Positions 3,190 to 5,007 are shown, numbered from the stretch's first letter. The stretch is DNA of 64,000 bases from Escherichia coli (GCF_029227855.1 NZ_CP074356.1); one strand, 5' to 3'. Notes: generated from the sequence alone by a model not told the origin. Made by a program: numbers and translations.

Positions 3190-3200
3190 TTTTGGATGAT

Positions 3201-3231
3201 GGCCGCCATGTGGCGGCCTGAATTATTTTTT
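3201..3231. terminator. Hairpin between convergent yjiA and brnA-like gene, likely bidirectional terminator
   Basis: ggccgcca-tg-tggcggcc inverted repeat followed by a T-run. Confidence 0.4.
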
Positions 3232-3525
3232 GTTCTGATCGCGCAGCATCGCTTCACGTAAAATTGCGTTCAGGCGAGTTTGATAGCCTTTACCTGGTCG
3301 CTTCAACCATTCCATCACATCAGCATCAATACGCACCGAAGCCTGAGTTTTCAATGGCCGATAAAACTTACCGCGTTCGGCGTTAGACCATTGCTCATCG
3401 CTGGAAGGTGGGATATCACTGTAATCAATATCTTCGTCGGATTTATTCGTCAGCGCCTTCAGTTCGGCCTCATGCTGCACATCGAGTGTAGAGGAGGTCC
3501 CTCGTTTATGTTTAACCATGCTCAT
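3223..3525 (-). CDS. brnA: BrnA-like antitoxin (ribbon-helix-helix type)
   Basis: Likely start MSMVKHKRG with GAGGAA Shine-Dalgarno upstream; C-terminus ...RIDADVMEWLKRPGKGYQTRLNAILREAM is typical of BrnA; overlaps the upstream toxin gene. Confidence 0.65.
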   Translation of the reverse strand: MSMVKHKRGTSSTLDVQHEAELKALTNKSDEDIDYSDIPPSSDEQWSNAERGKFYRPLKTQASVRIDADVMEWLKRPGKGYQTRLNAILREAMLRDQNKK

Positions 3526-3826
3526 AGCGATTCCTCTCTTTACGATCTGCTTTTCGTGCACTGATGATTCGAATAATTTCATTTCCGCTTTCGAAACGGA
3601 TGGTATGCGCAACCAGAATAACCACGATGCCGTAAACCAGGCCGATTGTCTGCCAGCGATACTCACCGTTTTCTATGCGTTCTTGCTGTGACAAATGTTG
3701 TGGATCATCAAACAATAACACCGCATCTTCAAAGCGGATGCCATGTTTCACCCGATTACTTTTGGCCTTGTTTTCATCCCATTCAAACTCCATTGGCATA
3801 ATTGCCATCCCTAATTGTATATACAA
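3512..3826 (-). CDS. brnT: BrnT-like toxin (DUF497 ribonuclease family)
   Basis: MEFEWDENKAKSNRVKHGIRFEDAVLLFDD motif typical of BrnT/DUF497; true start probably the internal MPMEFEWD; gene overlaps brnA. Confidence 0.65.
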   Translation of the reverse strand: MYIQLGMAIMPMEFEWDENKAKSNRVKHGIRFEDAVLLFDDPQHLSQQERIENGEYRWQTIGLVYGIVVILVAHTIRFESGNEIIRIISARKADRKERNRYEHG

Positions 3827-3997
3827 AAATGTATCTACAATTATTCTGCAATTATAGCGTTGATGTTGGAAATAGCATCACGTTTCGAATAATCAACCAT
3901 GAAATTGACAATGAGTAAGTTGGACTTGATTCATCCAATAGAATTTCTCGCCTGACATGGCACACTAAACACCTCGCTGTCGGGTAATGACTCCAAC

Positions 3998-4500
3998 TTA
4001 CTGATAGTGTTTTATGTTCAGATAATGCCCGATGACCTTGTCATGCAGCTCCACCGATTTTGAGAACGACAGTGACTTCCGTCCCAGCCTTGCCAGATGT
4101 TGTCTCAGATTCAGATTATGTCGCTCAATGCGCTGAGTGTAACGCTTGCTGATAACGTGCAGCTTTCCCTTCAGGCGTGATTCATACAGCGGCCAGCCAT
4201 CCGTCATCTATACTACGACCTCAAAGGCCGACAGCAGGCTCAGAAGACGCTCCAGTGTGGCCAGAGTGCGTTCACCGAAGACGTGGCCACAACCGTCTTC
4301 CGAAGCCTGTCATACGCGTAAAACAGCCAGCGCTGGCGCGATTTAGCCCCGACATAGCCCCACTGTTCGTCCATTTCCGCGCAGATAATCACATCACTGC
4401 CCGGTTGTATGCGCGAGGTTACCGACTGCGGCCTGAGTTTTTTAAGTGACGTAAAACCGTGTTGAGGCCAACGCCCATAATGCGTGCACTGGCGCGACAT
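3998..4500 (-). pseudogene. insB: IS1 insB, frameshifted
   Basis: InsB sequence is split between ORFs 4240-4500 and 3998-4207; the reading frame is lost around 4210-4260. Confidence 0.75.
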
Positions 4501-4694
4501 CCGACGCCATTCATGGCCATATCAATGATTTTCTGGTGCGTACCGGGCTGAGAGGCGGTGTAAGTGAACTGCAGTTGCCATGTTTTACGGCAATGAGAGC
4601 AGAGATAGCGCTGATGTCCGGCAGTGCTTTTGCCGTTACGCACCACGCCTTCAGTAGCGGAGCAGGAAGGACATCTGATGGAAATGGAAGCCAC
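4419..4694 (-). CDS. insA: IS1 InsA
   Basis: 91-aa [46 protein letters not shown]... matches IS1 InsA. Confidence 0.9.
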
Positions 4695-5007
4695 GCAAGC
4701 ACCTTAAAATCACCATCATACACTAAATCAGTAAGTTGGCAGCATTACCAAATTTTAATTACACTTAAGGTGTATATTTTCTATGCAAGCCATCAATTAA
4801 AGAGGTGTAATGTGCTGATGACTATTTGTAATCGTTATACATTCTGACCTGGAGTCAGAAGGTATTTCTCTGTCTGTGTATTCGCAGGCAGTGTGGTTGA
4901 TTACATGAAATTCAGTACATTTGTCCTTCTCGCCTGCCTTTCGTCATTACCGACGGTATTGAATTTCGTTTTCCCCATTGGGTTCTCCGGACAAGGAGTT
5001 GTTTGTT

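Follow-up and report, generated by a model that had tools for sequence, protein, structure and literature searches.

In E. coli, yjiA and yjiN flank a classical and highly variable locus, the immigration control region (ICR) or defence hotspot #36 (PMC12707154; PMC4498929). A Type I system is found at the ICR in only 36% of enterobacterial loci, and brnAT is one of three toxin-antitoxin systems of the region (2025 EcoSal review, PMC12707154). The ICR of E. coli C has been described as an 'empty site' (Sibley & Raleigh 2004, cited in PMC12707154). The BrnT/BrnA pair has been described in Brucella abortus (Heaton et al. 2012; PDB 3U97). Placement of the toxin gene before the antitoxin gene (T/A) is the rule in this family, and an RHH domain is a property of the B. 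abortus BrnA (PMC11980606).

Here we analyse the ICR contained in a 64-kb stretch (64,000 nucleotides) of E. coli DNA, referred to below as the window. The locus is bounded as the ICR is (yjiA to mdtM/yjiN), and no restriction gene is located between these anchors. We conclude, with a probability of about 0.85, that the locus is a decayed ICR allele derived from a brnTA-linked Type I haplotype by an IS1-associated deletion.

Results

Reading of the open reading frames gave the order yjiA, brnA, brnT, a 183-bp spacer, IS1, the mdtM upstream region and mdtM. The features are as follows.

2-1969: btsT, 3′ part
2019-2222: yjiX
2233-3189, + strand: yjiA, GTPase, conserved left anchor of the island (tblastn, 99.4% to K-12 YjiA; RefSeq)
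3201-3218, strandless: GC-rich, terminator-like hairpin GGCCGCCATGTGGCGGCC with 7 G-C pairs, between the convergent yjiA and brnA
3223-3525, - strand: brnA, antitoxin, 100 aa (Pfam PF14384; RefSeq WP_000063160.1)
3512-3799, - strand: brnT, toxin, 95 aa (Pfam PF04365; RefSeq WP_001297643.1)
3800-3982: conserved intergenic region upstream of brnT, non-coding, 183 bp (alignment with intact-cassette genomes)
3983-4749, - strand: IS1 relic, 767 bp (inverted repeats, alignment to IS1A, RefSeq)
4750-5007, + strand: native mdtM upstream region, 258 bp (three-way alignment, K-12 annotation)
4812-4847: ytiE, 11-codon ORF inside the mdtM upstream region (K-12 ytiE annotation)
5008-6240, + strand: mdtM, encoding an MFS efflux pump; nearest gene on the right side of the proposed deletion (tblastn, 97.3% to K-12 MdtM; RefSeq)

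An earlier, sequence-only reading had placed a toxin-antitoxin pair, a spacer and IS1 between yjiA and mdtM; this layout is present, and the K-12 gene order with which it was compared is that of the MG1655 annotation. The spacer was described there as about 150 bp of unassigned sequence. Alignment with intact haplotypes corrects this to 183 bp of conserved brnT upstream region. The hairpin at 3201-3218 is a probable bidirectional terminator, judging by its form and position. Compared with K-12, the mdtM upstream region lacks 11 bp near 4930, a deletion also present in the B2 strain.

The toxin matches BrnT_toxin (PF04365, RelE-like fold) across the entire model (1-77/77, E=4.7e-24) and the antitoxin matches BrnA_antitoxin (PF14384), also across the entire model (1-68/68, E=3.1e-17). 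These full-length Pfam matches confirm the earlier assignment of the pair as BrnT/BrnA-like; NCBIfam and PADLOC, unlike Pfam, returned no match for BrnT or BrnA. In structural databases BrnT matches the 'toxin' of PDB 7VD7 (E=4.1e-52) and the B. abortus BrnT of PDB 3U97 (E=1.6e-4). Both genes are on the minus strand and form a toxin-first bicistron, with brnT (3799-3512) upstream of brnA (3525-3223) and an overlap of 14 nt, an order that fits the T/A family (PMC11980606). The pair is predicted to be an intact type II toxin-antitoxin operon encoding a putative RelE-fold ribonuclease toxin. Upstream of brnT an invariant inverted repeat of 14 nt is observed at 3812-3825 and 3830-3843; this is a candidate BrnA operator. 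On its minus strand the spacer showed no consensus sigma-70 promoter. In the literature on E. coli BrnT/BrnA we found nothing specific to the window allele beyond the EcoSal review (PMC12707154).

The IS1 element is 767 bp long, in keeping with the ~768 bp of IS1, and is bounded by imperfect terminal inverted repeats of ~23 bp at 3983-4005 and 4727-4749, for which 0 matches are expected by chance. It is 91.7% identical to K-12 IS1A in the alignment. Of its two genes, insA (4419-4694) is intact; insB carries two lesions, a 1-bp deletion and a TGG>TAG nonsense codon, both located by the IS1A alignment and six-frame translation, and survives as remnants at 4240-4500 and 3998-4207. The relic therefore lacks the pair of intact genes from which InsAB′ is made by -1 frameshifting, and RefSeq labels it as a pseudogene ('IS1 family transposase, frameshifted; internal stop'). 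The element is thus assigned to IS1 by descent, but is not functional. No target-site duplication (8-9 bp) is present, as the earlier reading had also noted: the 9-bp flanks TCGCTGTCG and AAATTTTAA are unrelated. The lack of a duplication is expected after a deletion.

Proteins of the K-12 island and of the alternative Type I cassette were searched against the 64-kb window by tblastn, and the only matches were to yjiA, mdtM, brnA and brnT. At E<=1e-3 there was no homologue in the window of K-12 HsdS, HsdM, HsdR or Mrr, nor of RpnD, YjiR, YjiS, YjiT, YjiV, McrC, McrB or SymE; the missing genes of the alternative cassette likewise had no homologue there. The proposal that the locus lacks Type I (hsd) and Type IV (mcrBC/mrr) genes therefore stands. 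The same reading of gene loss had overlooked the framework genes: yjiS, yjiR and rpn (yjiP), which K-12, E. coli C and B2 strains all possess, are also absent from the window.

Three genomes with an intact brnTA-linked cassette were examined, namely the B2 strain C 691-04A, MEI005 and R12. They have the same gene order, yjiA-brnA-brnT-Mrr-like REase-hsdM-hsdS-hsdR-symE-yjiS-yjiR-rpn-mdtM, with different HsdS proteins. R12 (locus 24926-27312) has no mdtM, and yjiN comes immediately after rpn; mdtM itself is thus variable, in agreement with the use of yjiN as anchor in the review. PADLOC places the 'restriction endonuclease' gene after brnT in the Mrr-like Type IV family (Type IV mREase), and the remaining cassette genes match its Type I MTase, specificity and REase models.

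Alignment with other E. coli genomes located both junctions, each of which abuts IS1 exactly. On the left the window is collinear with C 691-04A through 3982 (locus position 15793), and on the right collinearity resumes at 4749/4750 (locus position 27063). The DNA missing at IS1 amounts to 11,269 bp relative to C 691-04A and 11,377 bp relative to MEI005. The left break sits 13 nt short of the GTG start codon of the Mrr-like gene: the intact relatives continue for those 13 nt, and the window spacer retains 183 of the 196 bp of the brnT/REase intergenic region. Up to 3982 the spacer is identical in extent to that of the three intact-cassette genomes, with 97% mean column identity. Across brnTA and the spacer the intact-cassette genomes examined are 97.2-98.6% identical to the window, not >=99%, and the immediate intact ancestor is thus unsampled. 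Homology to K-12 stops exactly at the yjiA stop codon (TAA) and returns at CAAATTTTAATT, ~270 bp upstream of mdtM and directly after IS1. This right flank is common to K-12, E. coli C and B2 strains in the three-way alignment and is thus framework sequence.

The window arrangement occurs in 1114 of 5426 complete E. coli genomes (~20%) when at least 80% of the 1788-bp query is covered. It is not a peculiarity of this strain. Seven finished genomes, among them ETEC E24377A, carry the query with 100% identity. Among the matches listed, most are at 99.5% identity, a number of differences about as expected of the 042 type. In both E24377A and EAEC 042 RefSeq calls yjiA, a BrnA antitoxin family protein, a BrnT family toxin, IS1 and mdtM. 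The brnTA pair adjoins yjiA in 2112 of the 5426 genomes, 1780 of them with at least 80% coverage of brnTA and spacer, or ~670 more genomes than have the IS1 allele.

The relic of strain 042 has the same frameshift and the same stop codon as that of the window; the sharing of both insB lesions points to a single origin. Between the two relics there are 10 differences, clustered in 4214-4378. At nine sites within 4298-4378 the window relic agrees with canonical IS1 and 042 does not, which suggests a short gene-conversion patch from another IS1 in a small E24377A-like subgroup. Positions 1-18982 of the window are 99.77% identical to E. coli 042 without gaps (18,982 bp). Compared with E24377A, the window has many SNPs in btsT and one indel further on. 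The YjiA, BrnA, BrnT and MdtM proteins of 042 and E24377A are identical, and we take these strains to belong to different phylogroups (D and B1, respectively). Such identity would fit a spread of the entire haplotype by recombination.

Elsewhere in the window, the leuX hotspot holds the following genes.

31800-32672, + strand: 'phosphorothioated DNA-binding restriction endonuclease'
33334-36714, - strand: helicase/REase-like protein, 1126 aa (PADLOC 'Type III REase' model)
36717-38399 (560 aa) and 38474-39853 (459 aa), - strand: large DNA methyltransferase, split into two ORFs
39859-42750, - strand: DrmD-like SNF2 helicase

This module is DISARM-like. With these genes at leuX, the strain has restriction-type defence within the window, outside the classical island. 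Unlike the window, E24377A encodes the methyltransferase as a single CDS of 1040 aa (WP_000049824.1). The split results from a one-base homopolymer difference from E24377A near 38486 (T6 vs T7, + strand) and may reflect a genuine frameshift, phase variation or an error in sequencing.

At 26573-27331 lies another IS1, copy B, which shares 97.4% identity with IS1A and is annotated as an intact element with a programmed frameshift. On one side it adjoins fimD, truncated at its 5′ end, and on the other nanC; the DNA from fimB to the beginning of fimD is missing. The 9-bp flanks of copy B, CGTTTTTCG and TCGAACGTT, do not match. This arrangement suggests that copy B marks a second IS1-associated deletion.

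Discussion

An IS1 adjacent deletion leaves a single IS1 at the junction and no 9-bp duplication. The sequences on either side of the relic are separated by 11.3 kb in relatives, the intervening DNA is missing, and both break points are in AT-rich intergenic DNA. The ancestor would have carried yjiA-brnA-brnT-(Mrr-like Type IV REase)-hsdM-hsdS-hsdR-symE-yjiS-yjiR-rpn-mdtM. IS1 would have entered one of two AT-rich intergenic regions, either brnT/REase or rpn/mdtM, and the ~11.3 kb between them would then have been removed, leaving one IS1 and no target duplication. The most likely route is intramolecular transposition of IS1 (adjacent deletion). Later, the frameshift and nonsense codon in insB would have cost IS1 its transposase, and with this loss the junction would now be fixed. 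What is left is putatively functional: the brnTA operon and mdtM, each still preceded by its own upstream DNA, which for mdtM is the native 258 bp. Selection against losing a toxin-antitoxin pair plausibly explains why brnTA has been kept right up to the break.

Queries made of chimeric junctions were used to search the 5426 complete genomes for intermediates, that is IS1 at either junction with the cassette present, and none was found, so the course of events and the precise mechanism are inferred. The sole full-length match to the left junction, Ec-91, is not an intermediate. In this genome (locus 8397-9418) an unrelated, intact IS1 is located within the 5′ end of brnT, cutting the toxin gene to 240 bp, and the complete Mrr-like and Type I cassette is still in place. 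This independent insertion indicates that the neighbourhood is an IS1 target.

It also bears on the closest alternative, in which RecA-dependent homologous recombination between two direct IS1 copies, one at each junction, removed the cassette. The product would be the same, a single IS1 with non-matching flanks; IS1 does insert independently nearby, as in Ec-91, and the patch at 4298-4378 is evidence of exchange between the relic and other IS1 copies. Such a route, however, needs two independent insertions of the same rare divergent variant (91.7% to IS1A), and no genome with either single insertion was found among the 5426. We regard it as possible, though unlikely. Collapse of the assembly at an IS1 repeat could in principle hide hsd/mcr genes, IS elements being classic sites of misassembly. 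Identical junctions are however seen in 1114 independently finished genomes, E24377A and 042 included, and an assembly artefact is thus ruled out.

Two further explanations deny that the cassette was lost from this haplotype. The sequence-only reading held that the K-12-type island (mrr-hsdRMS-symE-mcrBC-yjiPQRSTV) had been replaced by an incoming unit of brnTA and IS1, and the window does differ from K-12 over the whole interval that begins at the yjiA stop codon and ends ~270 bp upstream of mdtM. Against this, in many genomes a different Type I cassette directly adjoins brnTA and its 183-bp upstream region, so that brnTA is not linked to IS1 as a unit; it occupies exactly one place per genome, chromosomal in 2111 of 2112 cases. 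The IS1 has neither target duplication nor passenger genes, and in K-12 it is mrr, not brnTA, that adjoins yjiA. Replacement is scarcely credible on these grounds, and is already contradicted. K-12 is the wrong reference and not the ancestor, and brnTA is native to a different, common haplotype, in which it forms the left-hand gene pair. Could the window instead represent an ancestral 'empty' state, the Type I cassette having entered other lineages afterwards? Gene cassettes are known to come and go at this island (PMC12707154; PMC4498929), but the missing block includes yjiS-yjiR-rpn, found in K-12, E. coli C and B2 whatever the cassette type. In addition a foreign IS1 sits exactly at the join, and the left break falls within an otherwise conserved intergenic region, 13 nt short of a start codon. 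These three observations make the insertion of a cassette very unlikely, and we infer that the direction was deletion.

IS1-associated deletion corrects the framing of the locus: the allele derives from a brnTA-linked Type I haplotype, and its scar is carried by about one fifth of finished E. coli genomes. Many strains thus rely on islands elsewhere, the classical locus being devoid of a restriction system; in this window the other island is the leuX hotspot, with its DISARM-like module and a phosphorothioate-dependent REase. A more speculative extension, which we hold to be rather doubtful, is that one ancient IS1 deletion created a restriction-less allele that spread by homologous recombination across phylogroups, favoured by plasmid and phage uptake, with brnTA blocking further erosion. 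The insB lesions shared by E24377A-like strains and 042, and the 99.77% identity to 042, hint at such spread. If true, loss of the Type I/IV barrier would favour plasmid and phage uptake in, for example, ETEC and EAEC lineages, and brnTA would serve as an addictive anchor or a stand-alone abortive-infection module halting erosion on the yjiA side. The allele itself is ordinary, its genes are already annotated and loss of cassettes at this island is well known; we found no paper describing its exact derivation. The result matters little beyond bookkeeping for a common, already annotated allele of a restriction-gene island, and may help in typing island alleles and in choosing easily transformed strains.

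Of the described systems, the brnAT-linked Type I ICR of B2 strains shares with the window the same yjiA-mdtM/yjiN site and a brnA-brnT pair with spacer that is 97-98.6% identical. It differs in possessing the Mrr-like REase, hsdMSR, symE, yjiS, yjiR and rpn, in place of which the window has the 767-bp IS1 relic. The ICR of E. coli C resembles the window in being a natural allele that has no functional Type I system, McrBC or Mrr. Its gene order is yjiA-DUF262 (GmrSD-like)-hsdR remnant-yjiS-yjiR-rpn-mdtM, with no brnTA and no IS1. We considered whether the window carries this 'empty site' allele of E. coli C and rejected the idea because the gene content is different; the window allele is the emptier of the two, since the framework genes yjiS/yjiR/rpn have also been lost. 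We note that the E. coli C island (locus 30501-32994) is not strictly empty: it encodes a DUF262 protein of 550 aa, which matches the PADLOC Orf5/HEC-06/SspE-type models, and also holds a truncated type I restriction endonuclease gene.

With the B. abortus BrnT/BrnA (Heaton et al. 2012; PDB 3U97) the pair in the window shares the Pfam families, the toxin-first overlapping genes and a small RelE-fold toxin. The E. coli BrnT is nevertheless distant from the Brucella toxin (E=1.6e-4) and much closer to 7VD7 (E=4.1e-52). The window finally shares with IS1 adjacent deletions the single IS1 at the junction, the missing 9-bp duplication and the AT-rich targets; it differs from a typical case in that the element is inactive and no intermediate was recovered among the 5426 genomes.
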